Positions 4,414-51,434 of a DNA stretch of 64,000 nt are shown here, in pieces. Location of the stretch: contig JAZRVL010000049.1 of NCBI GenBank assembly GCA_045599105.1, positions 6,507 through 70,506 of the forward strand, read 5' to 3'. A program made the position numbers and the translations under genes. Position 1 is the first letter of the stretch. Each line of letters starts with the position of its first letter. Source of the DNA: Kiritimatiellia bacterium (GTDB lineage Bacteria; Verrucomicrobiota; Kiritimatiellia; RFP12; UBA1067). Under the pieces are notes generated by a model that made no database searches, was not told the DNA's origin, and saw only the letters and a list, made by a program, of their open reading frames with translations.

Positions 4414-4419
4414 TTAATC

Positions 4420-7590: not shown

Positions 7591-7622
7591 ATTGACCACC
7601 TGCTCCTTATTTTCAGTTATAA

Positions 7623-7651
7623 ATTATACTATTTCTTATTTCCTTATTCAA
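7623..7651 (-). promoter_or_regulatory. candidate sigma70-type promoter in front of the secretin gene
   Basis: The minus strand reads TTGAAT (7651-7646), a 17-nt spacer, then TATAAT (7628-7623), followed by AAGGAG and the ATG at 7590. The -35 element overlaps the stop of the upstream gene. Confidence 0.4.
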
Positions 7652-11220: not shown

Positions 11221-11240
11221 ATTACAAGTTTTCCAAAAGT

Positions 11241-11945
11241 TTACTGAAGTGTTGCCTCGTAATCGTTCGGGCAAACAAGTCCCCAAATCGTCTTGGAGCG
11301 ATCCACGAGTCCCTGACGACGCTCGATCATCGGAGTATCGTCATCGGTCTTGGCATTCATGATTTTATTGTCTTCCCAGAACTTTGTCCCTGACTCTATA
11401 CCCTTGATTTCGCTCCAGCTGTCTCCTCCCAATGTGTCTCCCTTTTCGTTGGTAATCTCAAGTCCTACCGCCCTGGGCTCGCCATAACGCTCCAAATACG
11501 ATGGTGGCAGCACTACCGATGCGCCGTGTTGACCTGCAGGAATGTTGAAATAAGTGACCGTCGTCGTGAAATAACTATAAGGCGCCAGTCCTTCTTTATT
11601 GCCCTTGTTCTCCTTGGCGAGCTTGGAGTCCAGTAAAACGTGCCAAGTAAAAGTGAGCTGATCCAAAAACTTTGAGCCATCGTCCTTGCCAAAAGTTGTA
11701 TACTTTGTTTTCAGAACGATCCACTGCCGCGGCTTTTTAAAGTACTCGTTAAGCCCATTGATGTTTGGTGCCATTGCGAGCGCACCCTGTCCGAGCTGCA
11801 CTTGCTCGATGAGAATCTTCGCCGCCTTACCAGTCGTCTCCATTTCGTCATTGCCTGGCATCGCCTTTTGCCTACCGCGGGTTGCCGCGCCTGCCGCTAC
11901 CGCCATCGTGATCACCATCGCCATCGCCAAGAATTTCGTGTTCAT
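11241..11945 (-). CDS. secreted protein of unknown function (Amuc_1102 position)
   Basis: 234 aa with signal peptide MNTKFLAMAMVITMAVAAGAA. It is the first gene of the platform cluster. I recognise no motif. Confidence 0.6.
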   Translation of the reverse strand: MNTKFLAMAMVITMAVAAGAATRGRQKAMPGNDEMETTGKAAKILIEQVQLGQGALAMAPNINGLNEYFKKPRQWIVLKTKYTTFGKDDGSKFLDQLTFTWHVLLDSKLAKENKGNKEGLAPYSYFTTTVTYFNIPAGQHGASVVLPPSYLERYGEPRAVGLEITNEKGDTLGGDSWSEIKGIESGTKFWEDNKIMNAKTDDDTPMIERRQGLVDRSKTIWGLVCPNDYEATLQ

Positions 11946-11968
11946 TTGTGCTCGTTCCTTTCTTTTTG

Positions 11969-12955: not shown

Positions 12956-12956
12956 G

Positions 12957-15138: not shown

Positions 15139-18100
15139 TTACTTTTGGGATACCTTGATTTGATACATCGCGCCTGTCGCGTCCTCGTCCTCAAGCGGCA
15201 TTTCGATTACCGCCTCGGTCTTGCCAAGCGTAATCGTGCCCTCCTTGGCGACGATCGGCTTTGCGGCGAGCGAAGTGTACTTCAAGATCCGGTACTCAAC
15301 CGTGAGGTTCTCCACCGCTGGGAAGGTGTAGAAGACCGCGAGTTCCGAATCCGCCGCGGCCGACTCGACATCGGCCACGACCTTGAACTTCGCCTTGCCG
15401 TCCTCTACCACGAAGTTGGCGATTGAAAGCGAGTGTTCGGCGATCTTGGCGTCGGTCGTCGCCTTGATAATGGCGTCGTTCGGATCCTCGCCTTCCCCGA
15501 CATCGAGATTCATCATCGCCGCCAGCAAGTTGGCGTTGCCAAGCGAGACGCTCATCAGCGTAGCAAGGCCCTTCGAGACCGGGTTCTCATTCGTCGTCAG
15601 TTCGCCGACCAAACTCTTCATCGAAACATAACTTCCGGCGGTGCGTGGCGCGAGCTCGGTGGCGCCCTTGGTGCTTAGATTTTTGCTCTGCGTCCATTCC
15701 CAGGCATCGGGCAAACCATCCTGATCGGTGTCGCAATCGTCGATGTAGACGGTTACCAGATTATGCGTTCCGACCTTCGGCCCGACCTTGATCGACTTCG
15801 GGGTGTAGATTATGCCGTCGCGCTGATCACGAACGCAGGCGTATCCCCAACTTTCCCAATTATCGCGCTTGCCGTTATTGTTGGTGTCGATGTAGGCCAT
15901 TACATAATAGCTACCCTCGGTAAGCCCGATGATCGAGGCGTTCTTGACTGGCGCAGTCGTGCTATTGGAGACGCTACTCTTGTCCGCGGTCTTGACATAA
16001 CCCGCAGAGGCGGAAAGGCCGGAGAAGTCGGGCGTATCGAACGCTTCGACGCGAACCGTACCTTCATCAAGAACAACCGTGTGGCCGAAGTACTTGACCG
16101 CGACTTCAATCGTGCCGTAATCGAGCTGATCCTCGGGAACGTTCATCTTGAAGCTTACCGCGTTGCTCCACTTATCCGAACGGAACTTCGCATTATAGGA
16201 AGTAATCTTCCACTTGTAGGTCTTATCGTTCTTAAATTCCTCACCATCAATAGTTGAATCCCCGACGCAGATTGGCGCGGTCCAGCAATAGTAACCGTCT
16301 GCACCACGCGCAGGCATCAACTGAATACCGCTCTTCCAAGAGAAATCATCTCCTTCAACCGAAATCTGGAATGCCGTATAAGTATTATATCCATTATCCG
16401 TCCACTTAAAGGTTGGCCGTGGTGAATATACTACTCCGTCGCTCGTTCCGCCAGGTGCGATTGGCGTTGGCACTTTGCGGTCTGTAAAGCTATCATAACG
16501 GCGAACAATGCACTGCGCCTGAACTAACGCATTCGAAACATCAAGTAACGAACTCATAGTGACTTTATTTTTAGCGTTAGCACCCTCTTCAATTGCAACA
16601 TTTCCTAAGACAACTCCAAAAACTACTTCGGCAACATCATTATCGGACGAACCTTCGGGAATCATTCCCCAACCGATATCGTAGATACCATTGTCTGGAT
16701 CCAAAATATCACCTTCGTGAATATAATTGCGCCCAGCATCGGAGTAATCAATGACCTTGTCCATCACCTTATAACCATTAATATTTACCTCCGTTGCCGT
16801 GGTTTGTCCATTCATCTTAAAGCCCTGCATATAGATTCGCGTCCAATGGGTCGTTGGATCAACCGCAGCGCCACTCGCCTCGGACTCGATCACATCCCCA
16901 GTATCCGAACGAACAACCTGTCGATCGGTCATGCCAGTAGTGAGCTGATAACGTGCAAACACTGGATTGGTATCGGTAAGCTCAATTGCGAACTTGCCAT
17001 AATTCCAACCCACATCCACATTATACGCAACTCCAAATGGTTCACCTGGGTCGTACTTGCCGTTTGCGTCGATCGTATCGGCGAAGACGATGAAGTTGTT
17101 CTTACCTTCCTTGAGGTGACCTACCGAGTTATTGCTCTCGCTACGTGGATCGGCATCACCCAAATAGTACGTTGAGGTCCTACCCGCACTCACTGGCTTC
17201 GACGACCAAGCTATTCTTGTGTATGACTGGGCAAAGGTATAGACCGACACAATTGTCGCGCCAATCGTCGCCGACGTTGGATCCGCCAAGTCTCCAGTAA
17301 AGATTGCATACTCTGGAAGCTTGGAGAAGTCCACAACCACCTCTCCTGTCGCATAATCGATCTCGCCCAACACTTCGCCATTGAGCTCATAGACCAAGTC
17401 TCCCTTGCCAGAATTATCATTGCGCATCGAGTCGTGCACCAAGCTTTCCCAGTCGGCACTTTCGGCTCCATGTGAATAACTCTGTCCAGACATCAAGTCA
17501 ACGACCAACCAATTCGGGTCCTTGAACTCGATCTTAAACGACCCTGCAACCACACTACCTGGCGAGAGATGCGTCATGATTTCCTTGGATGGATTCATAC
17601 CCAAGAATTTGGTCTTGGCCATGACGTTCGTATTTGAAGTGGTCTGTCTATCATCACCCGTATTGACCTCGCCAATCGTCCACTTTGCGTCAGGAATCGA
17701 TTGGAAGGTGCGACTCTTCTCGTCCGCACAATTCCACGCCTGCACCACAATCGGGCAGTTCACGTTCTGCTCACCGAGGTAAGTGATTGACGCCTCTACA
17801 ATCGGAACTGGATATTGCGCCACTTCAATTCCATCAATGGCAAGTGACGCATTCTTTGTAGGATCGGTGTCGGCCTGGAATTCCGCATAGTTCGACCAAC
17901 CATCACCATCTGGATCCTTATTGGCATCATAGATGTATGGGCTGACTGCCGAGAGGTTCTTCCACTGAACTTCCCAAGTATCAGCCATGTGATCATGATC
18001 CGTGAAGACATCGCCAATATAGAGCTTGCCGAGCTTCACATAAGCATCAGGCACATAGCCGTTGGTCTTGGGATTGATTGGATCGAAAGACTTTCCAGGA

Positions 18101-21100
18101 ATCATGTACACCTCGTTGAGCAGGTACTCAACGTAGTTCGAAAGCCCATCCTTGTCACTATCTTCGTGGCCATTCTTGCCCGAGATACCGTATATCTGCT
18201 CCCACCAATCTGGAAGTCCGTTGCCGTTAAAGTCGGCAATATCGCGGAAGGCGGGATCGGGAACCGTGCTGCCAGGCAAAAGTCCAGCGACAAGATCGCG
18301 CATATAGTCGGCGGGATTGCCCATGTACCAATCTGGCACACCGTCGCCATTGGAATCGATTCCTGTAAGCGTCCAGGCGGTCATCGCGCCCTGCCCGTCC
18401 CAATAATCGCTCTCGCGCTTGGCGAAAGCGCCGCCGAGCGGCAAAAGATCGGTGACACCCACCATACGGCTACGATTATCAAATCTCCGCTTGAGGTAAA
18501 GTCCCTCGTATTCTGGATGCATCTCTTCGTAGCGCAACACTTTGAAGCGACGATTGTCATTGTCGTTTTCATACGTCGCCCAACCGTATGGATTGGCCGA
18601 GTTCGGAATCTTGAAGCTATCAAATCCCGAAGTGTTCGACGGCACGTACGCCGCACGCGCATCCGCCCAATAGATCGAGTCGGCAAACGATCCATCCATT
18701 GCGCTTAAGTGCGCTACCGTATTTTCAATCCACGGAAGCACCGTCGCGTCCGTATAAACCGTGCTCTTGCACTTGAGGGTCGTTTGATCAACCCACCAGC
18801 TCGGCGCGAGCAAGTTATCATCCACCGTATTATCGGGCGCAAAAGCTCCCTTCACATTAAACGCCCCCGGCACCAACGCCACATCCTCCTCCTTGGTCGC
18901 GCCCGGCAACGACGTGAAGTCGTAGTGCATCATGAGCTGCGGCGGAATGGCCGCCGTGCCCATCACGTTCGCGTTGTCGTTGCGTCTTGCTTCGTTGCTC
19001 CACGCCTCGAAGACCTTCGTGCGATTTTCTTCAACATCCGATAGCGTATAGGCCTTGCCCTTCTCCGAGTTGATTTCCGCTTCCGTCCGCGCACCATCCC
19101 AAATCCGAACTTCCGCGACATAACCCTTGAAGAAGTCGGTAAGCGCACCAACCTCGTCGATAGTCGCCGGATACGTCGTCTCGAGTTCCGGATGGAAGGT
19201 TATCGGATACTTGATGTGCCGCGCACCAATCACGAACGATCCCGGCGCCACGGTGAAATCGGCAGCCGGGTAATCCGCGCTTGACGCCGGATCCTGCAAG
19301 ATCGGAACGATGCCGTTCGCCGGAATGAGCGAACTTTGCGCATAAGCTTCCTGCTCGCCGTTGACGTAGAGTCTCAGCTCCTTGCCGTCGTAGGAGAGAG
19401 CGAGATGAGTCCACTCGCCGAGCTTGGCGCTCTCGCGGGAGACGACGATGCAACCTGCGCCCGGAGTCCCCGAGGGAACCGCCGCCGAATCGTCGAACGA
19501 GCCGACGAACTTGCCTTCCTTAAGTTCGAGCCGGAAGTTGGCGCGCCACTGCTCCGTGCCCTGCTCCGCGCCCGCGGTCGCCGGAGTGTACACCGCTCCG
19601 CGCTCGAGAATCGTTCCCTCGGCCTCGGGCTTCACCCAGCACTCGACCGTGAACTGACGGAACATATCGTATGCCGCATCCGTATTGAGCTTTTCGCTAT
19701 GCGGATTGATGTAGGTTCCGGTGCGTTGATAGGCGACGCCCTTGTTGTCTTCGCCGCCGAGATAAATCGCCGCGCGACGATAGGGATCGGACGTGACGAG
19801 CGGATCGGTCGCGGCGATGATACCCGCGGTAAGTTCGCGCGAATCCGCCGTCCAGTCGTTATCGGTATCGTAACCCTCGTTACCCTCAAAGGTAAACATA
19901 TAGTCACGTCCAGTATCCTGGCTCTCGCCCACGATGGCCCACGGCAACTTTTCGCTATAATAAGCATAGCTCAGTCTCGTTACCGAAAGTGGCGCCGACG
20001 GCTCGGTCATCCAAAGCGGAGTCGGATCGGTGTGGCTCGTAGTCGGGCTGGTCATATTGCCCGTAATTGCTTCCTCGAAGTTACGGATCTTGTCGTTGTC
20101 GGGGTCGGCGTCGGGCGCGCCCGCGAGCCACGGATAACGATCAAAGTCGTAATTGGCCTCAATCTCGCCAAATCTCGTCCAAGCATTTTCCTTGGCATTG
20201 ATGATAATAGTCTTAGTTTCGCCCTCCGCATTAGTTACCTTAATCTCACCGAGGGATTCAGAGATAATATCACGGCCCGACTCGCCACCATAAAGCGGGT
20301 TAAGACCGTGGTAGAGTTCCCAATAGTCGTCCATACCATCTACATCACTATCCCACTGACGCGGATCGGTGGAAGCATAGACGATAGCCGGCAACCTTGC
20401 CGCGCCAAAGAACGTTACCTCATACACTGGGGATGGCGGCTGCATATAAAGCATGCTCGCGTTAGGATCCCACGTGCGTGGTGGCGGAGCAAAGTAACCA
20501 GTTGCCGCCCAATCCCAATCGTTTGGATCCAATGCACCCTCAGCATAAAGTGCGGCCATTGCCGGATTTTCCTTAATTGCCAGTGCATAGAAATTGGTCT
20601 CACTCGTATAGTCAAACGAAGGATACGTATACGCACTGACCCGCTCGCTGACCGTAATTGGATCTGGCTCCTCCAAGCTAAATGGATTAATAACCGGCCA
20701 CTTGACGATTCGACCATTGAGCGGGGTTTCGCTATCGTCATAGCGGAACGAGCGAACTGCCTGCACTAAGTATTCCTGATAGTTCTGAAGTCCATCGCCG
20801 TCAAAATCAAAGTCGCGATAAGTGCCTGTACGATAGTCCATAAGCTCTGCCATATCCATATAGGTATAGGCGTCAAAGGAATAGGTTCCGTCCATACCGC
20901 CCGCGATAAAGTGGCCGTTACCATTACGGCTATTACGATCGGGATCTGGCGTATCGATAATCGGCGTAATCCCATTTAAGGTTCCGTCCGCCGCTTTGAG
21001 CTTGTCCGTATAGACCGCAGGCCCCGAGACCGGATTGCCCTCGCCATTTACCACGAAGCCCGCGAACTGCCATTCCCACAAATCCGGCAATCCATCACCG

Positions 21101-27204: not shown

Positions 27205-27210
27205 TATCCT

Positions 27211-27594
27211 TTACTTTGAAGTTTTATCTGAAATTTTCTGTCTATCGGCAATCTCTTTGCGAATCCGTTCGCGCACTATCGCCTGATTTTCTATCCGACT
27301 TCGCTCAATCTCTTGGCTCACCGCCTCAACCTCCGCTTTGAGCTTTTCAACCTCTTCTCCTACGACTACTCCCGACTTCTTCAACTCCTCCAACCGAGCC
27401 ACCGCCGGTGCCCGCTTCTTCATCAACTGCTTCAGCTTCGCCGCCTGCTGCTTTAGGACATCTTGATACTGCGTATCCTCGGCCCGATCGACGACGACCT
27501 CTTCCTCCTTTTCGTTCTTTCCGCAGCCGCAAACCGCCGAAATCATCAGCGACAGCGCCACGATAGGAAGAAGTATATCATATTTTGGTCTCAT
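27211..27594 (-). CDS. small lipoprotein-like coiled-coil protein
   Basis: 127 aa. A hydrophobic segment LLPIVALSLMISAVCGCG is followed by a Lys/Glu-rich heptad-like sequence. ATGA overlap with the 2843-aa gene stop, and 6 nt before the 4021-aa gene start. Confidence 0.6.
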   Translation of the reverse strand: MRPKYDILLPIVALSLMISAVCGCGKNEKEEEVVVDRAEDTQYQDVLKQQAAKLKQLMKKRAPAVARLEELKKSGVVVGEEVEKLKAEVEAVSQEIERSRIENQAIVRERIRKEIADRQKISDKTSK

Positions 27595-30500: not shown

Positions 30501-33500
30501 TTGCATCCCCGCTGCTTTAACAGTCTCTGGGTCTACCACAATTCGCATCGTTCCTACAACATCATGAAGCCCAATATAGTAAGAACAAATTCCATTCGCT
30601 GGCAATGTGGAGAAGTCAAAACTCGTCACCGTCGTCCATCGCGAATCGTCGGCATCTGCCGCCGTCAAATCCCGCAAACTCGTTATATCGACTTTGTTAG
30701 TGGCGATTTGCAGCAGGAGTCTGGCGCTCGAATCCGCATTTTGATAGGCAAAAGTAAACATTCCGAGTCCAATTCCACGCGCCATTTCCGTGCTGCTACC
30801 CTCGTATCCATCCATTAAGGGCGAGCGAATGGATGCCGGCGCCCCATCCATCGTGCGCATCGGTGAAAGTTCAACGCGATGCGGGCCCTCCTCACCTTCA
30901 TCATAAATTTCGCAATCCACCCATGCCGAAGTAAAGACGAAATTAGTTGGCGAACCATAGCTCGTATCTTTGAAGAACGGCTGATTAACCGTGTTTGTAT
31001 AATCATCACCTCGCCATTGCGTAAAGCTAATATCATCAATGACCACATCCACCCGCGCATCGTCAAGCTCACCTCCATGCACAATTCGCAGCGCTGCATC
31101 CTCACGAATATACAAGGGGAGAGTGATTGGATCAGATATCATATATCCATCGATCTTGGCGCTTGCTACCGTAGTCCAGTCCGAAGTTCCCCGCTTTGCC
31201 CATTGTACGTCTACGGTTTGCGCTAAACTATCCGCCAATATGCCCCACGCGCCTTCCGCTTCGGTATATCTGTAACGCCCGTCCTCGAGCGCCCAGTATT
31301 TTGCAAGCTTATCCTGCTCGGATTTTACTGCGCCATTAAACACTACTGGATTTGTATCAAAGTATTCTGCCGTTCCACGATTGACAGAACCTAACCAGGT
31401 TACTGGCTTATCATAATAACGTGGAGCACGGAAAGTTGCTGGGCAATTCGCCGAGGCAACGCCAAAACTTCCTTTGTTGAGCGAAGTGTCCGAGTCCCAG
31501 TAGCAGACACTCATGAAATTATCATTTGCACTTGGCATCGCATTGAAGCTGCTCCGAGCGCGACAATAACCTGCTTGAACCTTTACGCCGCCGCTTGAAC
31601 GATCAACCGAAATATACATCACTGGCCGATTACCATCCGATCCACGAACAAATGGCGTATTCGCCCAATTTGAAAATGCCCCAATATTATGTTGCCCGCT
31701 TGTGAGGGTCGTTGCTTTGAGCGTTCCACCGCTCACCTTCCACTTCAGCAACTCATAAGCCATCTGGCGCTCATCAATCCTGGTCACCCTAAACTCATAG
31801 CATCCAACCATTGGGCGATAGTTCGCAACTACTGAAATTTGGCCATTGCCTGTAAAGTCCTCAATCCGATTGTCGTTGTTAATGGGCTGTTGATCCGACA
31901 TCACCGCCTGCGCTACGAAAGTATAATTCTCCAAGTCCGCATGTCCGTCAGCAAAACTATATGCAATATCGCCAAATTGAGTAGTTTGCGCGACACGCCC
32001 AGAAAAAGTCACCTTTTCCAATCCACGTGGAGCTTCAGCTGCATTTTGGAACTCAAGATAACCTTGCCCTTGACCCTCCATCTGAAACGCCATTCCCGAT
32101 TTTTGGAATCTTTCGTGAACCCACATACCATGTCCAGCCGTCCATCCGTTTGGCGTTTTGCTAGAGATAAAGGGAACATATCCAACATATCCTGTGTCGG
32201 GGGATATTACTGCATTAAACACTTCTTTCCAATAAGGACTTGTAGGATCGCTTCGTTTCCAATTTTCAAAGCGCTCAATAAATGATTTCATACGTCCTGC
32301 AACTCCGCTGATACGACCTTCCGCTTCCGAGGAACCCACAAAAATCTCCTCCATCTTATTCGCATCATTCCATCCATTGAAGTTTTGATAATCGGCACGA
32401 GTAACCGTAAGCGACCGAGAACTGTCGTCAATCATGAACATCAAATGTCCCGTTGCTGCCGTGCACTCAACCTTTGACCACTGATCCGCATCTCCCTTGA
32501 CAAGTTGAGCACTCTTGGTATTGGCAAGCGACGGCAAATCAAACTCCGACTTCCAATAATTGGTAACGCAGGTTTCCAAATCTTCTCCAAGTGCAATTCC
32601 CTCCAAGCGGAACTCCAACCCGCCTTCAATCGCTTCCGGCGTACGCACATAGCCCCGCCATTGATGCTCACCGACCACCGCGAGTGGCGTCTCAACGACT
32701 GGTGCGTCCTTTCCAGCGCGAGTAAACACCCTCACCAATCCATAATTGCTCTTGCCCTCGCGGAGGCGCACGAACCAATCTGTGCCCATCGTCGGATACA
32801 CATTTTCCGCAACTCCTGCGTGATTAGTCACCACCGAAATCTCTTCACTATATCCTGGAACGCCAACTCCACTACCGCTATAGTCAACATAGCTATAGTA
32901 TGGTGCTTGAATATCCGTTTCGTAATAAAACTCTACATCACCGACCTCTGCAGGTAACGTCAATGACTGGGCAGACTTAAATCCTTTATCTGGGTCTAAA
33001 AATACCGTCTGCCAATCATTCATCGATTGATTCAAATAGCGCCAACGATAACGCATCCGTGCCGACGAAATAAAGGAGTTGGGGTTTACAATCAACGATG
33101 GATCGCCTGCCGTTCGATAGGTAGCAACCGCTTGCGCATAAACTGTATCGGCGATTGAAGGATAAGTTGGAATACAAGCACCTTCAAAGCCCATCACTTC
33201 CTTGCCACGACGAGTGCTATCATACTGCCCCGCTGGCGCCAAATCCACCTTCATTGCTGGATACGAGGCAATCACATTATCAATTAGAATGAGCGCCTTG
33301 CCATCAGGACTTGCCGAACGCTCTGGGTCAATGGATATACGACGAATTCTAAAGCGTGCAAGTCCATCTGCATCAATTGGTACATAAACCCGATAGAAAG
33401 TATCCATGGCCGCGCCCTTGTCGATATCAAGTTTAAGGACATCCGTTTCAGGGAGTTCCTCTTTAGCTACGCCATCAACAATTTTTATTGGCCACATCTT

Positions 33501-36059
33501 AATGGGCTTCCAATAGTCGGACTCATCGGCTGCATAAGCCGCCGCCTCGCCAAACACCGCCTCCACTACAATTTGATAACTATTGGTGCCCTTGTATTCT
33601 GGACTTGTCCAACCATTTACCGCATCAAAGTAAATCGTGCCCACTCCATTCGTATAGCAAGGCGAAACCACTGCTGCATCAAGCACGTTACGCATCACGA
33701 TTTGCCCGACGTCGCGCCGCCTAATTGCACGCGTTGAGTGTTCGCCAATTCTAAGTGAATGCTCGCTATCGTATGGTAAATAGTTTTGATCCCCTGCGAG
33801 TGGCGCTGTGTCATCATTACGCGGGAAGGTATTGCCGTGACGGCAATCTTTAAGCCGCCATAGCTCAGTCGTACTTTCGTCTTCCGCTAAATAAGCGTAA
33901 TATCTGGAGCTTGTGCCCGGCCGCAAGTTATAAAGCTCAATTTCATCCATTCCCTCATGCACCCAATAACTTGGCGTTTGCTTCATTGCACCTGCATTAT
34001 ATGCATCGTACCAACCCTGATAATTAATCGACGGAGCGGAGCGCGAGCCCTCGCGCCAGTCGTTGTTCATAAGGAGCACGCGCCCTTCTGCGCTCGAACC
34101 GAGCGAAGTATACGCATTATGTCCAACAACATTGATTTCTATGCGATGAACGAGTTGCTCATAATCGTCAGTCGCTTCTGGAACAAACGCCACAATATAC
34201 GTACCAGCACGAGTCATTTCATGATAATCGATAAGGTGTTCATCGGGATTTGTCACGTAATAGAAGTAATATGTCACAGCAGCATTGTCAGCGAGTTTGC
34301 CTTTATTGATAGTCAACGATGCCGGCGGTTTTTGAAGTTCCCAACGAACTGGATCTACCTTCGGATCTTCAACGAAATAATTGACCTTCTTTCGATTTCG
34401 TGTCACTAACGATGAAAATTCAACTATCGTTTCATCGGTAACTTCGTCCAATTTGGTTTGTGGTGGCGCTTTTTCATCATCCGAACGCCAATAAAGGACG
34501 ATCTTGTCGCCCGCTTGCGCGTTAGGCGCTAAAATCTTGATCGTCGAAACGCCCTCGACGTTCCACGACTCGATTTCGTAGTTGAGCATTTGCCCGTTTT
34601 TGTCTAAAATGAAGAATCCGCCCTCCGCTCGTGCGTGATTAAAGCCAATTGGATTTCCTTCAACGATAGAGAACTTAAAGAGCTCGCTGACCCCATTTGG
34701 CAACGTTATTTCAACATTGTCCGCAAATTTATTAGCCGATTCCTCATCCCAAAGATAGAAACTCGTTATTGCCTCGGCGCCTTCCCAATTATCAGATTCA
34801 TCAACTATTGCCTTAATATACCAAAGTCCCGCAGTCTTGGGCACCAATGTTGGCAGGGTGAATGGTAGCCATTCCTCTGCAGTCGCACTCTCGGCGTAAG
34901 TGTATTTAACTTGGGTTCCCCAGCGTGGGGTACAATTTGGGCTGTTTGCCCTCTCACCTATCTTCCAACCCTTGAGAGCGAGGTTGTCAATCCGATTAGT
35001 GGCTTTTTTAATTTCCCATTCAACTGTAACTACATCGCGCGTGTGATCAGTCCATTCAAAGCCATCATTTAGCGTTACTGTCGTAGTGTAATGCCCCGCA
35101 TAGATCTGATCAAGATAACCCGTACGAGTATATCCTTTTGACTCAAAAACTGCATTGGTGGCATTGCCCGTATAGTAAAAACTCTGCGGAGTAATTGGAC
35201 GATCAAGTGGCTCTGCGGAAACTGCGCTAATTCTAATAACGACGACGCCGTCGCCACCCTTTCCTCCAGGGGTTTTCTCCGAGCCACCGCCACCACCCGA
35301 GCCTCTCACACCATCGCTCGCCGCCATTTGTCCATTAGGACCAAACGCACCATTACCGCCGACTCCACTACCGCCTAAACCACGGTTATTGCCGACGAGC
35401 ACCGCGCCGCCGCCGCCCGCTGCATAGTAAAGCTCCTCGCCCGTAATATCGCATTCTTTGCCACTACCGCCCGCGCCACCAAAGACAAGAATATCTTTTA
35501 TTGAGGGCTCGCCACCACCTTTGCCAGCATAGTTATTACCGCCATTGCCAAATTTATCGCCCATCGCACCGCCCGAAGCCGTCCAATCAGCGAGTATTTT
35601 TCCGTCAAGCGCAATTGTCGTGTCGCCGCCCGCCGTCCCCTCTCCGCCGGCGCCAACGGTAATTGTATAAACACCGTTATTGAGCGAAATCGTCCCGTCG
35701 CTAAGCAAAAGTTGACCCGCATCACCTCCGCCACCACCGACGTTCTTCGCCTTGGTCTCGTCGCTCATCGTTGACGATCCCGCACCACCACCGCCGACCG
35801 CGAGGATACGCGCAACCGCCGAGCCAGGCAAAGTCAAAGTGCCATTATTTACCGTATTCGTATAAACAAAGACGATATCACCCTCACCTTCTGGTCCCGA
35901 CGGCCAAAGCACTTTCGCGCCCGTATATTCAAGCGTTACGCCCTGAAATGGCACACTCTCTGCGCGCGTCGTCCACACGATGAGCGATGCTAAAAGCGCA
36001 AATATTCCTCTTAAATACTTATTCAAAACGTAGTTCCAATCTAAAGAAGTTATAGCCAT
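27591..36059 (-). CDS. giant secreted protein (about 2820-2843 aa) with an N-terminal glycine-rich domain
   Basis: Uninterrupted ORF with signal-like LNKYLRGIFALLASLIVWTTRAES. The start is ambiguous: ATG 36122 (104-nt overlap with the upstream gene), ATG 36059 (41-nt overlap) or TTG 36026 (8-nt overlap, giving MNKYLRG...). Confidence 0.8.
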   Translation of the reverse strand: MAITSLDWNYVLNKYLRGIFALLASLIVWTTRAESVPFQGVTLEYTGAKVLWPSGPEGEGDIVFVYTNTVNNGTLTLPGSAVARILAVGGGGAGSSTMSDETKAKNVGGGGGDAGQLLLSDGTISLNNGVYTITVGAGGEGTAGGDTTIALDGKILADWTASGGAMGDKFGNGGNNYAGKGGGEPSIKDILVFGGAGGSGKECDITGEELYYAAGGGGAVLVGNNRGLGGSGVGGNGAFGPNGQMAASDGVRGSGGGGGSEKTPGGKGGDGVVVIRISAVSAEPLDRPITPQSFYYTGNATNAVFESKGYTRTGYLDQIYAGHYTTTVTLNDGFEWTDHTRDVVTVEWEIKKATNRIDNLALKGWKIGERANSPNCTPRWGTQVKYTYAESATAEEWLPFTLPTLVPKTAGLWYIKAIVDESDNWEGAEAITSFYLWDEESANKFADNVEITLPNGVSELFKFSIVEGNPIGFNHARAEGGFFILDKNGQMLNYEIESWNVEGVSTIKILAPNAQAGDKIVLYWRSDDEKAPPQTKLDEVTDETIVEFSSLVTRNRKKVNYFVEDPKVDPVRWELQKPPASLTINKGKLADNAAVTYYFYYVTNPDEHLIDYHEMTRAGTYIVAFVPEATDDYEQLVHRIEINVVGHNAYTSLGSSAEGRVLLMNNDWREGSRSAPSINYQGWYDAYNAGAMKQTPSYWVHEGMDEIELYNLRPGTSSRYYAYLAEDESTTELWRLKDCRHGNTFPRNDDTAPLAGDQNYLPYDSEHSLRIGEHSTRAIRRRDVGQIVMRNVLDAAVVSPCYTNGVGTIYFDAVNGWTSPEYKGTNSYQIVVEAVFGEAAAYAADESDYWKPIKMWPIKIVDGVAKEELPETDVLKLDIDKGAAMDTFYRVYVPIDADGLARFRIRRISIDPERSASPDGKALILIDNVIASYPAMKVDLAPAGQYDSTRRGKEVMGFEGACIPTYPSIADTVYAQAVATYRTAGDPSLIVNPNSFISSARMRYRWRYLNQSMNDWQTVFLDPDKGFKSAQSLTLPAEVGDVEFYYETDIQAPYYSYVDYSGSGVGVPGYSEEISVVTNHAGVAENVYPTMGTDWFVRLREGKSNYGLVRVFTRAGKDAPVVETPLAVVGEHQWRGYVRTPEAIEGGLEFRLEGIALGEDLETCVTNYWKSEFDLPSLANTKSAQLVKGDADQWSKVECTAATGHLMFMIDDSSRSLTVTRADYQNFNGWNDANKMEEIFVGSSEAEGRISGVAGRMKSFIERFENWKRSDPTSPYWKEVFNAVISPDTGYVGYVPFISSKTPNGWTAGHGMWVHERFQKSGMAFQMEGQGQGYLEFQNAAEAPRGLEKVTFSGRVAQTTQFGDIAYSFADGHADLENYTFVAQAVMSDQQPINNDNRIEDFTGNGQISVVANYRPMVGCYEFRVTRIDERQMAYELLKWKVSGGTLKATTLTSGQHNIGAFSNWANTPFVRGSDGNRPVMYISVDRSSGGVKVQAGYCRARSSFNAMPSANDNFMSVCYWDSDTSLNKGSFGVASANCPATFRAPRYYDKPVTWLGSVNRGTAEYFDTNPVVFNGAVKSEQDKLAKYWALEDGRYRYTEAEGAWGILADSLAQTVDVQWAKRGTSDWTTVASAKIDGYMISDPITLPLYIREDAALRIVHGGELDDARVDVVIDDISFTQWRGDDYTNTVNQPFFKDTSYGSPTNFVFTSAWVDCEIYDEGEEGPHRVELSPMRTMDGAPASIRSPLMDGYEGSSTEMARGIGLGMFTFAYQNADSSARLLLQIATNKVDITSLRDLTAADADDSRWTTVTSFDFSTLPANGICSYYIGLHDVVGTMRIVVDPETVKAAGMQKNPNYGRVIITQVFCRDEPVLDTSCWWGWNLRTSADLHKSGDGQLMYLADNVADGGPLEDFGLSVALNNSVYSDTIYEEQAAYKEHQPFVQTPTFKDAEVGEVIFKARRYDVNKGETARITVYGAKSGDLTDDSQWKYVTHFDVTDNLYHTYSYRTEPGDEYKVFRFAVVGVKDAQEMGKADDPRPDVPVRVAFDEVVVCEAVRPMLAFRNVFAFRSNLKGRAFNPGYQDKTEQPLANEDFGVQAEVYASQLPDDIDFKKGIKVTLHWYNGLMTWGYDNWQNDKKTGHLQLVECEDAPLVFRGSYDNSSCIGAIKEPGSVVQYMLEVEYYTTESDKPVKTLMRKNDWEKPQWYVGIDYNDVEYKSYNSFAAYTILDSVSPGWAWINEVNVFGGYVDELSYKNRDENYQFVEVAIPYEASIPGWHLDFISMEGTTNTACLFTDTTSLTRKLAPGEATSSKKTHEDSKCVFLSVASPGSSDNIVSAGGDVDGTWKLAVNDCTFAADGHIASDFYPVAIRLVRDSGVIEQEIVLEGTNIYNEISSEKGYEYSAEKLALDLNAGEAGGAWFDIGNDMLDGDHSLSVLTSHGEGVENWSNTPKRTPGRKNEGQTIDPNHPTPSGSTVFVYCYVEPEPGHFTQTVGEAIDTTEPVLVIVPKESPDGTNIVYNIENWYELGEVTTNGVPIVLSETRGKVTVNVARNATETIEVRAKSKPDSRLDEYVKADDPYRMAIVDWLNKGMNAHGEMFECDDSPQEIHIAGLMKMNGEIKRELSLTEMYWLDINPFQADWAFKVGFVERPSRVVIDEDAEEGDIKENRRLSVYMCITNTREEVVTGSPRAPDVLRSVDPGKTSLDYIRGDISSWTSVTFKVTGKIVNNLPYNKGWVPLRWFIFGPNSFYPAGSEKEFQSSIEIIDPYSRYSPTWKDGWGEWWGRRDEAPVFNWFKINTEISNIGIETLSPVNWYDFGEKEEK
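35229..35840 (-). other. glycine-rich domain in the 2843-aa protein
   Basis: ILAVGGGGAGSS...VGGGGGDAGQLL...YTITVGAGGEG...FGGAGGSGK...YYAAGGGGAVLVG...GSGGGGGSEKTPGGKGGDGVVVIRI. From memory this matches the bacterial and phage glycine-rich-domain family that ends in G-V-V-I-R. Confidence 0.55.
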
Positions 36060-38658
36060 CGGTAATCTTCGGCTCGGTGCAATCGGTCCAATCGTCGGTA
36101 AGTTGCGCCTTGCCTTGGACATGCCAAACTCCGTTGAACTCCCACACGGGCTTACCGATCGTAATTACTCCCGTCGTCGAATCAACCGCAATCGAAGGAA
36201 TCCGCAAGTCGCCCGTAAAGCCGTTCAGGAGATATTCGCGGTTAAAGTCCTCTTTATTCAACCTTTCTGGCAAATATCCCTTGCCCTGCGCCCAAATGAT
36301 AATCTTCTTGAAGCGCTCATCGTCTGCCGTTGCTTCGTCGTTTTCGATCCCAAGCTCTTGCGCAATCTCTCTCGCCGAACGCGACGAGTCCTTCGCATTT
36401 GTCGCGCTAATCGTCGCCGAGGCCGCTTCCGCGCCAGCGTCTACAGTGAAGGAAAGCCCATCCGGCGTAATCCCGACGGGTTCGGAAATCGTAGCGTCAA
36501 TATACCACGGTGCAAGCGTCAGCTCAATCGTGTAGGTCGTTTCGAAATCGACTTCGACCGGCTCGCCAGCGACAAGTTCCTTAATAGGTTCATCGCCCTT
36601 CATCAATTTCGCCGACTCAATGCCCTCTCCGAAAGTAGCGGTGAAATTCACGGAAGCAGGAGGAGGAGGAATAGCTTCCGCTACAATCGTGCAAACGGGA
36701 TCTTCCGCACCAGAAATAATCGTGAACGTCGTTTCCGACAAGGTCGCGCCGCCCTCGGCAGTCCACGTGCCTTGTCGGTAATTTTCCGCGTAAACGTCCT
36801 CGGTAATTTCCAAAGTTGTCGATTCTCCCACGAAATTAAGCAATTTCTCTCCCGCCTCGGTTACTTCCATCGGCGTTCCGTTCGCCTTAAAGCTCTTAAC
36901 CCCTTCCGTCCACTTTAACTTGTAAGTGCCGCCTTGGGTAATCGTCCAGTAGCCATCCTCCAATTCGCAGCCCCGTCCCTTTGCAAGGTTGCCCATATAA
37001 CTAAATGCACCATCTGTCGTATTTTCAGGGTTTTTGAACGACCCGTTAACTATCGACAAAGCTTCACTTGCGCCGAACTCGTCGGTAAGCACTGTTTCAA
37101 TCGTAACGCCCTTGTCGTTTTCAAGATTGCCAATCGTCACCGTGCCCGGGATGCCCGAGATATTAAAGAGTCCTTCCGCATCTCCCACCATCTTACCGCC
37201 GCCGACCGTATCAATCAGGGTAAAGCCCTTGCACTCCTCGTTGATGGTAAAGAGCACGCCCGAAATACCTTCCTTGGTAATTGTATGACCCTTAAGATCG
37301 AGCGTAATCGCCGGCATTTCACTACCGATCAGATACCCTTCTTCCATACTCGTTTCCAGTGCCGTTGAGAAGTCGTCGGCAAGCTCGATCGTAATCGGCT
37401 CGCTACCCAGATCGGCGAAAACCTCCGAAAGAAGCGAATAGGTATTATCGCCGACCTTAAAGCGGGGTGCCGCCTTGGGATTCACGACGATGGTGCAAAC
37501 CGCATTCGCGGCGGTAATCGTAAAGGTATCGTTGTCGAGCGTCGCACCGCCCTCGGTTGTCCACGTACCCGCTTCATAGACCGCTTCGTTGTAGGTAACC
37601 TCGGTAATCTCCGCCCTGTCGCTCGCGCCGGTAAAAGCGATTTCCTTCGCGCCGGCGCCTCCCTCAACCGAAACCGCCTCGCCGTTCAGCTTAAATCCCG
37701 TGACCCCTTCCGTCCACTTCAAGGTCCACACGCCACTCTGCGCGAACGCGGGAGCCGAAGCGTAATCGACTATCGACAAATCGTCGATCTTCCCCACGCC
37801 GTTGAAGCCGGCCGCGGCAATCACATTCGCGTCGTCGGTTCCCGCGGCAATCAAGCTCGGGAAAAGCCGTTTCTGCGCATAAAGATCCTTCGCCGTCGCA
37901 TTAAGCTTGCCTTTAAGATAATAATTAAACGCTTCTGCATAATCATTCGCACTCGACTCCGCACACGCAACTGGCACTTGATCTCCATCAATAAAAATCT
38001 CAAATCCAACTACCGCAGGCTCATCGGTAATGATATTGTCAATTGCCCGCACCGTGAGTCGATGCCATGAGTCGGGCTCAATTGCAATATCAAGCTTGAA
38101 ATCAACTCTGGAAATATCGCGATCCGATTCACCAATTGATCCTGCAGTCACGTAGAGATTGGTATCAGCACCGCCATCAGTTCCAAGCCAAACAAGAATT
38201 TTTGCCCGTTCGAAATCGGTCGGCGTCTCCAACCCATCAATCGCGCTAAACTCCATCAAAGTGTCAATGATAATCCCATTACTAATTGCTGGTGCATCTT
38301 GATGGCTTGGCAAAAAGCCAATATTATTTACCGACGTACGATACAATGGATTTATCGACGACTCCATAAGTACATATTTATTCCCAGGGCCATCCTCAAC
38401 CAACTTTGGCTCGTCTGGCTTATAAACATAACTATCACCGGTTCCTAAATAGGCACCAACGATTGCGGTTTGTTCCTTGTAATCTGATTGCCAGAAGCGA
38501 ACATCACTGCCCTGGCCGGAATCATCGCATTGCACATCAATTTTATAATTGGCGCCAAACTGCTCAAACCCTATCAAATTAGAAAGCGGCTCTCCTACCG
38601 CCCTCGCGCTAAGCACGACGGCAAATACCGACAATAATGTCAATATCTTAAGTTTCAC
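36019..38658 (-). CDS. secreted protein (879 aa) with a LamG-like N-terminal domain and a duplicated 84-aa module
   Basis: GTG start with signal peptide MKLKILTLLSVFAVVLSARA. DSWHRLTVRAI...GFEIFIDGDQV is LamG-like. First gene of the giant operon. Confidence 0.8.
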   Translation of the reverse strand: MKLKILTLLSVFAVVLSARAVGEPLSNLIGFEQFGANYKIDVQCDDSGQGSDVRFWQSDYKEQTAIVGAYLGTGDSYVYKPDEPKLVEDGPGNKYVLMESSINPLYRTSVNNIGFLPSHQDAPAISNGIIIDTLMEFSAIDGLETPTDFERAKILVWLGTDGGADTNLYVTAGSIGESDRDISRVDFKLDIAIEPDSWHRLTVRAIDNIITDEPAVVGFEIFIDGDQVPVACAESSANDYAEAFNYYLKGKLNATAKDLYAQKRLFPSLIAAGTDDANVIAAAGFNGVGKIDDLSIVDYASAPAFAQSGVWTLKWTEGVTGFKLNGEAVSVEGGAGAKEIAFTGASDRAEITEVTYNEAVYEAGTWTTEGGATLDNDTFTITAANAVCTIVVNPKAAPRFKVGDNTYSLLSEVFADLGSEPITIELADDFSTALETSMEEGYLIGSEMPAITLDLKGHTITKEGISGVLFTINEECKGFTLIDTVGGGKMVGDAEGLFNISGIPGTVTIGNLENDKGVTIETVLTDEFGASEALSIVNGSFKNPENTTDGAFSYMGNLAKGRGCELEDGYWTITQGGTYKLKWTEGVKSFKANGTPMEVTEAGEKLLNFVGESTTLEITEDVYAENYRQGTWTAEGGATLSETTFTIISGAEDPVCTIVAEAIPPPPASVNFTATFGEGIESAKLMKGDEPIKELVAGEPVEVDFETTYTIELTLAPWYIDATISEPVGITPDGLSFTVDAGAEAASATISATNAKDSSRSAREIAQELGIENDEATADDERFKKIIIWAQGKGYLPERLNKEDFNREYLLNGFTGDLRIPSIAVDSTTGVITIGKPVWEFNGVWHVQGKAQLTDDWTDCTEPKITDGYNFFRLELRFE
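36679..36930 (-). repeat. 84-aa module, copy 2 (aa 577-660 of the 879-aa protein)
   Basis: GTYKLKWTEGVKSFKANGTPMEV...GTWTAEGGATLSETTFTIISGAEDPVCTIVA aligns with copy 1. Confidence 0.75.
37483..37734 (-). repeat. 84-aa module, copy 1 (aa 309-392 of the 879-aa protein)
   Basis: GVWTLKWTEGVTGFKLNGEAVSV...GTWTTEGGATLDNDTFTITAANAVCTIVV. Confidence 0.75.
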
Positions 38659-38681: not shown

Positions 38682-38690
38682 ATTATATCA
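38682..38690 (-). promoter_or_regulatory. extended -10 element TGATATAAT upstream of the giant operon
   Basis: The minus strand reads TATGATATAAT. This places the -10 hexamer (38687-38682) 23 nt upstream of the GTG at 38658. A weak -35 TTGTGT lies 18 nt upstream. The same 9-mer occurs at 54933-54941 and 55828-55836. Confidence 0.45.
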
Positions 38691-51208: not shown

Positions 51209-51434
51209 TATTAAATCCTCTTTTAGGTTGTGTTAATGTAGATTGTATCAAATAATATTATATTTATAAATAGAGAATAATTATTATTATTAGAATTGTT
51301 GATAAATATAGTAAGTAATTTATAACCTTTTATTTATAGGGTTTTATTACAATTTGAAAGTAGATAATTATAATATATTATTTTAATTGATTTAGATAAG
51401 ATAGAAGTTATTATCATTTATTTATACATTATAA
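51209..51434. other. very AT-rich dnaA-dnaN spacer; candidate DNA-unwinding element / oriC segment
   Basis: The 60-nt line at 51241 has 7 G+C. ATTTATA occurs four times (51262, 51318, 51332, 51420). Box-like 9-mers in one orientation: TGTTGATAA 51297-51305, AGTAGATAA 51359-51367 and TTTAGATAA 51391-51399. Confidence 0.5.

Follow-up and report, generated by a model that had tools for sequence, protein, structure and literature searches.

The locus considered here raises the question of what a cassette of four genes, two of which encode giant proteins, does for a bacterium, and by which route such products could cross the outer membrane. The genome belongs to the gut/rumen Kiritimatiellae, which are abundant and almost uncultured. 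A preliminary description of this DNA proposed that the proteins are the cargo or extracellular fibre of a nearby secretin machine. Below, the window means the whole 64-kb stretch of DNA that was analysed.

The four-gene cassette is real. It spans 23.5 kb near oriC, is surrounded by housekeeping genes, and consists of four co-directional ORFs on the minus strand, A, B, L and C, encoding 879, 2822 or 2843 (depending on the ATG), 127 and 4021 aa, respectively (Table 1). These are the same ORFs as had been listed before (879 + 2843 + 127 + 4021 aa). At 50% GC, chance cannot keep a frame open over 4021 codons. The ORF coordinates also bear out the tight junctions noted earlier, namely the A/B overlap (36019-36059), the 4-nt B/L overlap (27591-27594) and the 6-nt gap between L and C (27205-27210). 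The extended −10 element TGATATAAT reported upstream of the cassette was read at the same place, and the element itself, the leader TTGGGATAGTA and the GTG start are kept in the relatives L001 and L002, the sequence farther upstream being unalignable. A generic sigma-70 scan missed the TGATATAAT element because there is no −35 match. Promoter and terminator scans of the window gave chance-level output, from which the operon limits are not definable, and tRNAs or Rfam families were not found in the window. The A/B overlap does not stem from a frameshift in a single gene, given that the two ORFs lie 40 nt apart in L001 and in L003 have an ORF on the other strand between them. Nor are A, B and C paralogues, as BLASTP between them gave zero matches, and a phage origin of the locus was rejected because the flanking genes are housekeeping and phage genes are absent from the window.

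Table 1. Features of the cassette and of the genes downstream of it (positions are those of the window).
Feature	Positions	Strand	Basis
Extended −10 promoter element TGATATAAT (TGnTATAAT)	38682..38690	−	24 nt upstream of gene A GTG
Gene A, 879 aa, GTG start	36019..38658	−	ORF
Gene B, 2822 aa	27591..36059	−	ORF, second ATG 36059; 2843 aa from first ATG 36122
Gly_rich_2 of B, residues 95-298 of the 2843-aa form	35229..35840	−	Pfam PF21722, E 4.9e-9
Gene L, 127 aa, predicted lipoprotein	27211..27594	−	lipobox ...AVCG/C
Gene C, 4021 aa	15139..27204	−	ORF
Dispersed TSP3-type DxDxDGxxDxxE motifs of C, residues 1505-3837	15694..22692	−	Pfam TSP3_bac, regex
Laminin_G_3 (LamG) of C, residues 2515-2622	19339..19662	−	Pfam E 8.5e-17
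C-terminal ~100-aa beta-sandwich of C	15142..15441	−	family consensus; AF2 six strands, residues 904-999 of model
ackA	13991-15133	−	NCBIfam above cut-off; 5 nt from C stop
pta	12957-13994	−	NCBIfam above cut-off
kdsD	11969-12955	−	NCBIfam kpsF above cut-off
Akkermansia-type PilMNOPQ-like platform, five genes	4420..11945	−	NCBIfam; Pfam Secretin, PilM_2
Amuc_1102-like	11241-11945	−	NCBIfam Amuc_1102_rel E 1e-6
PilM/N-like Amuc_1101	9664-11286	−	NCBIfam Amuc_1101_fam E 1e-100; Pfam PilM_2
Amuc_1100-like	8732-9667	−	NCBIfam Amuc_1100_fam E 5e-11
Amuc_1099-like with TSP3	7644-8735	−	NCBIfam Amuc_1099_fam E 3e-25, above cut-off
Secretin, Amuc_1098-like	4420-7599	−	NCBIfam Amuc_1098_fam E 4e-128; Pfam Secretin

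Of the four proteins, A varies most. Its signal peptide MKLKILTLLSVFAVVLSARA, conserved in the alignment of homologues, is followed by an N-terminal LamG-like jelly roll (WHRLT...IDDLS) and Ig-like repeats, and the protein ends with a ...NFFRLELRFE strand. Zero sequence matches to A were obtained in Pfam, NCBIfam, PHROG and PDB, and nine homologues were found. An unannotated ORF of 477-991 aa occupies the position of A in seven of the eight contexts examined; those of L001-L004 are matched by the window A in tblastn, and those of L090, L092 and L093 were counted by position. A metagenome scan with the A alignment returned five short loci with an unusable context. The flank upstream of A is different in every context examined.

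B in its 2822-aa form is 100% identical to a database protein (P0001). Its full-length homologues number about 116, and those with a name come from Kiritimatiellae MAGs; invariant residues occur along the entire length of the alignment. Behind the signal peptide lies the glycine-rich domain that the preliminary description had recognised by eye; it is Pfam Gly_rich_2 (E 5e-9), is of the phage-tail-fibre type, and also matches PHROG 863 'tail fiber assembly' (E 5e-8) and, weakly in a profile comparison, the cyanophage Pam3 fibre 7yfw (E 0.002). A long array of jelly-roll/lectin-like beta-sandwiches then follows. The AF2 model of residues 640-1839 is all-beta (pLDDT 78.9), and its Foldseek matches comprise reelin repeats, MAM, the GH16-type jelly roll (at 7-10% identity), carbohydrate-binding domains of Vip3A and phage tail proteins. 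The core family has 304 representatives among 1.84 billion, all giant, and is thus restricted. As modelled, B appears as a 300-kDa chain of tandem jelly-roll/lectin-type beta-sandwiches with a Gly-rich cap.

C has a signal peptide and a beta-rich N-terminal third, carries TSP3 motifs, LamG and a series of tandem Ig/FN3/MG-like sandwiches, and ends in a small beta-sandwich; it is strongly acidic (net charge -274). The LamG module and the TSP3-like array noted earlier were both found in this protein: the regex detected 13 TSP3-type calcium-binding motifs at residues 1505-3825 (Pfam TSP3_bac, E 1e-17), and Laminin_G_3 also matches the LamG of pappalysin-2 (8sl1, E 1e-4). The NCBIfam CglD and Amuc_1099 matches in C are restricted to the TSP3 motifs, and homology of C to CglD or Amuc_1099-like proteins was rejected because the overlap consists of these generic motifs alone. 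In Foldseek, the AF2 model built for the C-terminal 1000 residues (pLDDT 64) resembles macroglobulin/FN3 strings and the BIg domains of SiiE (2yn3, prob 1.0). The family consensus ends with ...SGFFKVxVxx and the window C with ...GAMYQIKVSQK; the GFFKV-type terminal motif is common to C, the A family and a 2197-aa protein encoded at 57364-63957, and the C-terminus HMM weakly matches some A-like proteins (E 4e-5 to 0.05). This terminal beta-sandwich is a candidate anchoring or sorting domain. At least 164 relatives of C occur among GTDB species genomes, and its presence in the clade is near-universal; a homologue search with the C-terminal 1000 aa gave mostly fragments. The models and motifs together depict C as a very acidic 440-kDa chain of Ig/FN3/MG-like sandwiches with LamG and 13 TSP3 calcium sites.

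For C and B, the fold matches are to beta-sandwich arrays of a generic kind and have low global TM-scores; they thus support binding modules but no specific ligand. PDB sequence searches gave nothing besides the LamG and the weak glycine-rich match. The AlphaFold models of B and C revealed no catalytic signature, and the GH16 catalytic ExDxxE motif is absent from both proteins, so that an enzymatic reading of the GH16-like fold of B was dropped. These data bear on the explanation that the giants are a CBM array or a cellulosome-like scaffold, which captures or degrades polysaccharides to feed the cell and is exported by a general T2SS encoded elsewhere. The jelly-roll, GH16-like, CBM-like and LamG folds argue for it, and Kiritimatiellae are glycan specialists. 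Omnitrophota giants have been proposed to combine attachment with carbohydrate degradation (10.1101/2023.11.21.568195). Nevertheless, we find this explanation decidedly improbable: across 7,850 residues, glycoside hydrolase, lyase and sulfatase families remained unmatched in Pfam and NCBIfam, the GH16 motif is missing as stated above, and neither transporters nor enzymes for carbohydrates neighbour the cassette in the window.

The 127-aa ORF had been described as a lipoprotein, and this is upheld by its lipobox GC[GS], kept in eight of nine aligned homologues. L also bears a K/E-rich coiled-coil helix, and its RMxDPxY-type motif is conserved. In 45 loci the HMM of the L family detects an ORF directly in front of C (E 1e-8 to 1e-44), and L precedes C even in the distant L075-L078, which are without B. 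Such conservation characterises L as a predicted lipoprotein and a dedicated partner that always accompanies C.

The B-L-C core was present in all eight homologous contexts examined, and the L-C pair was also found in distant lineages without B. The neighbourhood comparison, which the preliminary description had set as a check, thus showed that the orthologues are not scattered. As evidence against its proposal, that description had further named HMM hits to an adhesin or toxin family with dedicated secretion; Pfam, NCBIfam, PHROG and PDB placed none of A, B, L and C in a characterised family of this kind. The median identity of the C tail is 32%, compared with 80% for AckA and 85% for Pta in the same loci. 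The giants diverge far faster than the housekeeping proteins beside them, a pattern common among exposed surface proteins that meet a host or phages.

Hydropathy revealed a hydrophobic N-terminal h-region in each of the four proteins and no TM-like segments beyond it. On the basis of reading, hydropathy and conservation in homologues, A, B, L and C are all predicted to carry Sec-type signal peptides, that of L being of the lipoprotein type; the signal-like N termini noticed earlier are thereby substantiated, with the peptide of A and the lipobox of L conserved. In type II secretion, the cargo enters the periplasm via Sec or Tat, and the N-terminal signal peptides found here would provide for such entry. 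Secretion or sorting domains were not detected in A, B, L or C by Pfam or NCBIfam. As to RTX export, the cassette proteins have no HemolysinCabind match in Pfam, the nonapeptide regex gave zero matches in A, L and C and one in B, which lies within its Gly-rich domain, and the 64-kb window contains no ABC transporter, MFP or TolC-like (T1SS) genes. Type V secretion is represented by no Autotransporter, TPS (Haemagg_act), POTRA or ShlB matches in Pfam and NCBIfam, and the last residue of the proteins is E or K, without an aromatic OMP signature. Neither NCBIfam nor Pfam matched a T9SS sorting domain (TIGR04183 / TIGR04131) at the C termini; no T9SS is known outside the FCB group. LPXTG, PEP-CTERM and a C-terminal TM segment (motif and hydropathy reading), as well as the class III prepilin signal peptide (GFxxxE), are absent from all four proteins. 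The list of modules missing in the preliminary description (RTX/T1SS, autotransporter, LPXTG, PEP-CTERM, T9SS CTD, prepilin) is therefore reproduced.

The lack of a recognisable module for outer membrane translocation or sorting in all four proteins is what would be expected if the giants were Sec-exported yet kept in the envelope as a calcium-dependent stabilising or glycan-sequestering scaffold, with L fastening C to the outer membrane on its inner face. The coiled-coil, Lpp-like shape of L and the near-universal presence in the clade at a core-genome site near oriC among housekeeping genes are consistent with such a scaffold. However, B and C diverge very fast, as exposed proteins typically do under diversifying selection, both resemble lectin, tail-fibre and adhesin modules, and a normal periplasm would hardly have room for extended proteins of 300 and 440 kDa, which renders an envelope scaffold very improbable.

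What lies downstream bears directly on the export route. The order ackA-pta-kdsD is identical in related genomes, with a median C-to-ackA gap of 38.5 nt across 70 loci and a median gap of 41 nt between kdsD and the Amuc_1102-like gene, and the array goes on past the platform with the tightly packed coaE, rho and uvrA. The platform matches five Amuc families in the order 1102-1101-1100-1099-1098. Amuc_1099_fam alone is above its cut-off (89.7 vs 50 bits), while the other four are below theirs (428.7 vs 750, 338.3 vs 650, 42.7 vs 180 and 28.1 vs 55 bits), so that we regard the platform as a distant homologue of the Akkermansia system. The cassette had been placed directly upstream of this platform. 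The common strand and the upstream position hold, but the two are not adjacent: the secretin and the PilM-like protein are encoded 3.2 kb downstream of the cassette in the same array, behind ackA, pta and kdsD. This Amuc_1098-1102-type secretin system is the sole candidate for an outer membrane conduit in the window.

That the cassette travels with the platform was observed in part of the loci. The order C-ackA-pta-kdsD-platform was found in 57 of the 68 loci having at least 1.5 kb downstream, in genomes that are close relatives (median identity ~80% for AckA and 85% for Pta), whereas L084 keeps C-ackA without the platform, and L076-L078 have L-C with neither ackA nor the platform next door. 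Because the housekeeping genes share the block and the genomes are close, synteny cannot tell functional coupling from a core-genome block. Assembly ATPase (GspE/PilB), GspF/PilC and prepilin peptidase genes, as well as pilins and pseudopilins, were not found in the 64-kb window. In the closest relative, L001, at least seven prepilin-type genes, a GspK-like one included, lie directly upstream of A; a pseudopilin cluster as a general neighbour was rejected, being found in this one context of eight.

On these data we weighed the proposal that the neighbouring Amuc_1098-1102-type machine has A, B and C as its cargo or extracellular fibre, threaded as folded rods through the secretin after Sec export, with L as a tether, pilotin or chaperone. 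No secretin is known to pass a 440-kDa substrate, and Akkermansia, which has the platform, is not known to have such giants; both points count against the proposal. The three intervening housekeeping genes are unrelated, and with coaE, rho and uvrA following, the arrangement may be inherited core synteny among closely related genomes, the more so as the linkage is gone in the distant loci named above. The ATPase, PilC/GspF and pilin are absent from the window, and the TSP3 likeness of C to the Amuc_1099-like protein is a generic motif. On the other hand, the platform lies within the same co-directional, tightly spaced array, its order and short gaps are kept in most loci, whereas every context shows a rearranged flank upstream of A, the cassette of L001 sits between the prepilin gene cluster and the platform, and the Sec signal peptides of the cargo are like those of T2SS substrates. 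There is also a precedent in the PVC supergroup, the Omnitrophota (10.1101/2023.11.21.568195). We consider this proposal unlikely, and the export link of the giants to this secretin is in itself doubtful.

The best explanation, to which we give about an even chance, is that the cassette encodes a lineage-specific, giant, calcium-binding, lectin-like surface adhesin or fibre complex with a dedicated lipoprotein. Surface display is most likely, judging by the signal peptides, folds and evolutionary rate. After Sec export and calcium-assisted folding, B and C would be displayed outside the outer membrane, where they may bind glycans or host/particle surfaces, A being a variable accessory or tip subunit of the B/C assembly. 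In the outer membrane, L could dock or chaperone C, and the GFFKV-type C-terminal beta-sandwich of A and C may serve as a retention or sorting element. A bolder and improbable extension is that the Amuc_1098-1102-type system is no pilus machine but an export/assembly apparatus for Sec-delivered giant lectin fibres, in which B and C would form the fibre, A a variable tip and L the outer membrane docking factor, with the GFFKV beta-sandwich as a new sorting signal.

The cassette, which lies by the replication origin, occurs in at least 164 species-level genomes, and its rate of evolution is four to five times that of its neighbours; its size, spread and fast evolution suggest that it is probably one of the main contacts of the cell with host glycans, particles or phages. 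As for the outer membrane crossing, either a secretin-type system takes cargo far beyond any known size or there is a route not yet recognised, and L and the common C-terminal GFFKV domain are concrete handles for probing it. If the secretin link were true, it would give a function to the Amuc_1098-1102-type cluster, much studied in Akkermansia for its host effects; we know of no canonical pilin for this pilus-like system in Verrucomicrobiota/Kiritimatiellota. If fibre export were true, this would be a new route for proteins of >400 kDa across the diderm envelope.

Among known systems, the giant proteins of Omnitrophota, whose genes adjoin T2SS-like loci (West-Roberts et al. 2023, 10.1101/2023.11.21.568195), come close in architecture. 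Both belong to the PVC supergroup and are very large, beta-rich, multi-domain and mostly unannotated, so that structure prediction is needed; attachment and carbohydrate-related domains are proposed for both, and both have a conserved neighbourhood with a secretin-type system, in Omnitrophota also with class III signal-peptide proteins. A Rotamase gene lies upstream of the cassette in L002, as near the Omnitrophota giants. The latter are, however, single genes for 10,000 to >30,000 aa, whereas the cassette has four genes, proteins of 0.9-4 thousand aa and a dedicated lipoprotein; their secretion locus (gspD/E/F) is upstream and complete, whereas the PilMNOPQ-like set lies downstream, behind three housekeeping genes. 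In Akkermansia muciniphila, Amuc_1098-Amuc_1102 are abundant in the envelope and are believed to build pili-like structures (Ottman et al. 2017, PMC5332112). This likeness concerns the downstream neighbours, not the four giant genes. No giant operon is known from the Akkermansia cluster.

The RTX adhesins SiiE, LapA and MpIBP are likewise acidic, calcium-binding chains of Ig-like beta-sandwiches of several hundred kDa, and an adhesive surface function is likely in both cases. They lack Sec signal peptides, have an RTX array and a T1SS signal at the C terminus, and their genes lie with those for ABC/MFP/TolC components, in contrast to the cassette, where Sec signal peptides are predicted and neither an RTX array nor T1SS genes in the window are present. 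The thrombospondin signature domain and the TSP3 proteins CglD and MtsD of Myxococcus share with C the combination of TSP3 repeats and a lectin-like LamG/L-type lectin module. The match of C to NCBIfam CglD (E 6e-14) scores 50.8 bits against a 400-bit cut-off, and C differs in having no VWA domain, in not being a lipoprotein and in having no gliding-motility genes nearby. Finally, B recalls phage tail fibres, as its Gly_rich_2 domain weakly matches PHROG 863 and the Pam3 fibre and its core fold resembles tail proteins of the lambda gpJ type, but it differs from them by its cellular core-genome site next to oriC, its predicted Sec signal peptide and a size ten times that of a typical fibre.

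The giant operon of four genes claimed in the preliminary description was recovered as four minus-strand ORFs, A, B, L (the lipoprotein gene) and C, which together make up the A-B-L-C cassette. Its junctions also proved to be as described, i.e., A overlaps B, B overlaps L by 4 nt, and L is separated from C by a 6-nt gap. The extended −10 promoter predicted 5′ of A was found at its place. In the alignment with two relatives (B identity of 61% and 40%), the extended −10, the short leader and the GTG start of A are kept, and the sequence further upstream is unalignable between the window and the same two relatives. Consensus promoter scans gave matches at the chance level only; conservation in the alignment is better evidence for this putative promoter than such scans.

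Features of the cassette and its surroundings (window positions)
Feature	Position	Strand	Remarks
uvrA-like gene (putative)	1-2459	-	819 codons; runs off the window start; 3′ of rho; recognised by eye from the sequence
ackA-to-rho block	2459-15133		tightly packed
Pilus-like platform with secretin	4420-11945	-	
C	15139-27204	-	4021-aa ORF
C-terminal element of C	15142-15441	-	reads AMYQIKV in the window
L	27211-27594	-	127-aa ORF
B	27591-36122	-	2843-aa ORF; second ATG at 36059 gives 2822 aa, the database form P0001
A	36019-38658	-	879-aa ORF, GTG start
C-terminal element of A	36019-36100	-	A family ends NFFRLELRFE
Extended −10 promoter TGATATAAT (putative)	38690-38682	-	24 nt 5′ of the A GTG
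ORF	48329-48952	-	207 aa; no Pfam family (E up to 0.001)
dnaN	50114-51208		origin region
dnaA	51435-52859		origin region
mnmG	52959-54701		origin region
ORF	55868-57268	+	466 aa; no Pfam family (E up to 0.001)
2197-aa giant secreted protein	57364-63957	+	signal peptide; C terminus NMFYRVLI, a strand of the same type as in C

To follow the cassette across relatives, we compared eight fetchable contexts of B homologues (B identity 30–61%). In all eight, B is followed by a gene of 125–151 aa and then by a LamG + TSP3 gene of 3,900–6,100 aa, and in seven the place of A is taken by an unannotated ORF of 477–991 aa. A tblastn search with window A recovered this ORF in loci L001–L004; the ORFs of L090, L092 and L093 were counted by position, not by comparison with A. 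Furthermore, the C-terminal 1000 aa of C were used as a query against 185,579 species genomes, which yielded 164 relatives; the analysis covered the best 80 loci. A lipoprotein HMM placed L directly 5′ of C in 45 loci, including the distant L075–L078, where a 3,500-aa C-like gene without B upstream is followed by an unrelated secreted protein of ~1,550 aa. The presence of L before C even in these B-less loci suggests that the L-C pair is the oldest unit, B being a clade-specific addition and A a variable accessory. L075–L078 come from distant, higher-GC Kiritimatiellae, several of them termite-gut and other MAGs, and also carry an Xaa-Pro peptidase-like gene 3′ of the C-like gene; neither ackA nor the platform accompanies the L-C pair there.

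The named B homologues belong to Kiritimatiellae MAGs, where they bear the label ‘glycine-rich domain-containing’ or ‘DUF2341 domain-containing’. Of 1.84 billion cluster representatives, only 304 match the B core (E up to 0.001), each being a giant protein, and literature searches found no earlier description of the A-B-L-C cassette. The cassette family is real, conserved and unannotated. Most of its best 80 C-related loci (of 164) belong to genomes of rumen, gut or faecal origin. Several contigs with this Kiritimatiellae-type block are labelled Lachnospira, Barnesiella, Alistipes, Faecalibacterium, Methanomethylophilaceae and others (L013, L024, L026, L031, L032, L034, L035, L042 and L056); these are probably mis-binned contigs or mislabelled MAGs.

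A hydrophobic signal-type segment opens all four products, as had been read from the sequence, and no TM-like segment follows it in A, B, L or C. The signal peptide of A is conserved among its homologues; the public gene call (P0151, 852 aa) begins 27 codons 3′ of the conserved GTG (38578–38658), so that the signal peptide is missing from the database protein. P0002, a close homologue of B, bears a canonical signal peptide, and the lipobox of L is kept in 8 of 9 homologues. Pfam reported Gly_rich_2 in B and TSP3_bac and Laminin_G_3 in C, in agreement with the domains seen by eye. Searches of A, B, L and C revealed neither an RTX array nor an LPXTG, PEP-CTERM or prepilin motif; no autotransporter, TPS or T9SS-CTD model matched the four proteins, and no T1SS genes lie within the 64-kb window. 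The same negatives bear out the list of export, anchoring and sorting modules reported missing, and the descriptive part of the preliminary description is confirmed.

Conservation in the B family extends from end to end, and many W, G, R, N and D residues are invariant; B is thus not a simple repeat protein. Its glycine-rich domain is similar to families associated with phage tail fibres (PHROG 863, E 5e-8; Pam3 fibre, E 0.002). AlphaFold2 predicted residues 640–1839 of B (28 homologues) as an all-beta chain with a mean pLDDT of 78.9, for which Foldseek retrieved reelin repeats (E 5e-7), MAM domains, Vip3A carbohydrate-binding domains, the GH16-type jelly roll of a Fibrobacter glucanase (probability 1.0, ~9% identity), lambda gpJ and many phage tail proteins. 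The GH16 catalytic motif is absent from both B and C. C has 13 TSP3-type motifs, to which its NCBIfam matches to CglD and Amuc_1099 are confined, a net charge of −274, and a LamG resembling that of pappalysin in a PDB sequence search. Its last 1000 aa were modelled (14 sequences, pLDDT 64) as tandem beta-sandwiches matching macroglobulin and FN3 strings and the BIg domains of SiiE (probability 1.0). The global TM-scores of these Foldseek matches were low, as flexible multi-domain chains would give. A has a LamG-like signature at its N terminus (WHRLT...IDDLS) as well as Ig-like repeats. According to the models, the fold matches of B and C are to arrays of binding-type beta-sandwiches and to nothing more specific. 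An alternative reading of the cassette proteins, as a CBM array that captures nutrients and is exported by a T2SS from elsewhere in the genome, is improbable.

Proteins of the C family close with a small beta-sandwich, and the consensus of its last strand is SGFFKVxV, also seen as [ST]GF[FY][KR]VxV. When the last 25 residues of 1,319 ORF segments from all loci were searched for this motif by regex, 72 segments matched, where ~2 were expected by a rough estimate, and nearly all were members of the C or A family. With an HMM of the C terminus, some A-like proteins were weakly matched (E 4e-5 to 0.05) and window A was unmatched. Looser variants close the 1,534–1,656-aa proteins of L076–L078 (...PQRFLRLKV) and a 688-aa protein of L084 (...QGFVKVWV). 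The element is common to the C and A families and to other large secreted proteins of Kiritimatiellae. The 2197-aa protein has no family match except a sub-threshold PATR repeat, and no BLASTP similarity to A, B or C. No known sorting-domain model matched the C-terminal beta-sandwich, a candidate element for retention or sorting; given this domain, the statement that the proteins lack a sorting module may partly dissolve.

The cassette had been placed directly upstream of a secretin platform. The platform is there, but the adjacency is not direct. The stop codon of C precedes the start of ackA by 5 nt, where a terminator would not fit, and ackA is followed by pta and kdsD, all three above the NCBIfam cut-offs. 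The next five genes match NCBIfam Amuc_1102, Amuc_1101, Amuc_1100, Amuc_1099 and Amuc_1098 in that order, the Amuc_1101-like product being PilM-like with a membrane-spanning tail and the Amuc_1098-like product a secretin; coaE, rho and the putative, open-ended uvrA end the array. These matches indicate a real platform, distantly related to the pilus-like cluster of Akkermansia, which encodes abundant proteins of the envelope (PMC5332112). The ackA-to-rho block, which combines metabolic genes with genes for LPS precursor synthesis, a pilus-like platform and transcription termination, may form one long transcription unit, and its ackA-to-secretin part is kept across ~57 species-level genomes. 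No assembly ATPase, PilC/GspF-type protein or pilin is encoded within the 64-kb window. The PilMNOPQ-like secretin system is the only outer-membrane export candidate visible.

The preliminary description proposed that the cassette proteins are the cargo or extracellular fibre of this machine, with the lipoprotein as tether or chaperone, and set scattered, unlinked orthologs against that proposal. The downstream content of the 80 loci, scored by tblastn with window proteins, showed otherwise: the order ackA-pta-kdsD-1102-PilM-1100-1099-(secretin) is fully kept in 57, as the proposal predicts. Five loci have ackA (with pta and kdsD where reached) before the contig ends, one (L023) has ackA-pta-insert-kdsD and then the contig end, and one (L084) has ackA followed by unrelated genes; four have none of these genes (L076–L078, and L053, whose match is internal to a longer ORF), and 12 with <1.5 kb downstream are uninformative. 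The median gaps are 38.5 nt from C to ackA and 41 nt from kdsD to 1102. In L023, L036 and L043, ~2.4 kb without a match to window proteins separates pta from kdsD. Export through the secretin is also favoured by the flank 5′ of A, which carries different genes in each of the eight contexts while the 36-kb block is never broken, and by the closest relative, L001/L005 (one contig, GCA_045599445.1). There, at least seven prepilin-type genes lie directly 5′ of A (L001 1–7300, with GspG/H/K-, PilV- and Verru_Chthon-cassette-like N termini and a 984-aa GspK-like protein), a stretch taken up by housekeeping genes in the window; in this one of the eight contexts only, the cassette has pilin genes on one side and the platform on the other. 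A precedent exists in Omnitrophota, where giant genes adjoin T2SS-like loci (10.1101/2023.11.21.568195). Nevertheless, platform synteny is weak evidence, since the compared genomes are closely related (AckA and Pta have median identities of 80% and 85% to the window proteins, the C tail 32%), the housekeeping genes of the block are conserved equally, and the more distant L084 and L076–L078 have no platform beside C. We consider export through the neighbouring secretin unlikely, and the cargo role is still hypothetical.

The GC content falls to 0.32 in an AT-rich stretch at 50–52 kb, the cumulative GC skew has its minimum at ~52–54 kb, and genes to the left of this region are on the minus strand and those to the right on the plus strand. 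Together with dnaN, dnaA and mnmG, this sequence evidence marks 50114–54701 as the predicted replication origin region, which puts the cassette 13–36 kb from oriC on the leading strand.

Taken together, the Sec-type leaders, the tie of L to C over a wide evolutionary range, the lectin/Ig/calcium architecture, rapid divergence and clade-wide conservation near oriC point to a surface structure. B and C, together with A, would build a structure at the cell surface that is stabilised by calcium and either adheres or binds glycans, and L would serve as an outer-membrane docking or assembly factor for C. We give this surface reading an even chance; that the proteins instead build a scaffold internal to the cell envelope seems improbable. 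By analogy, the cassette proteins resemble giant surface adhesin-like proteins, being similar in function and shape to the calcium-binding adhesins SiiE and LapA, yet they have none of the defining features of T1SS, T5SS, T9SS or sortase/exosortase substrates. The cassette agrees with the overall pattern of giant PVC proteins found near secretin systems, and differs from them in size, gene set and its dedicated lipoprotein.
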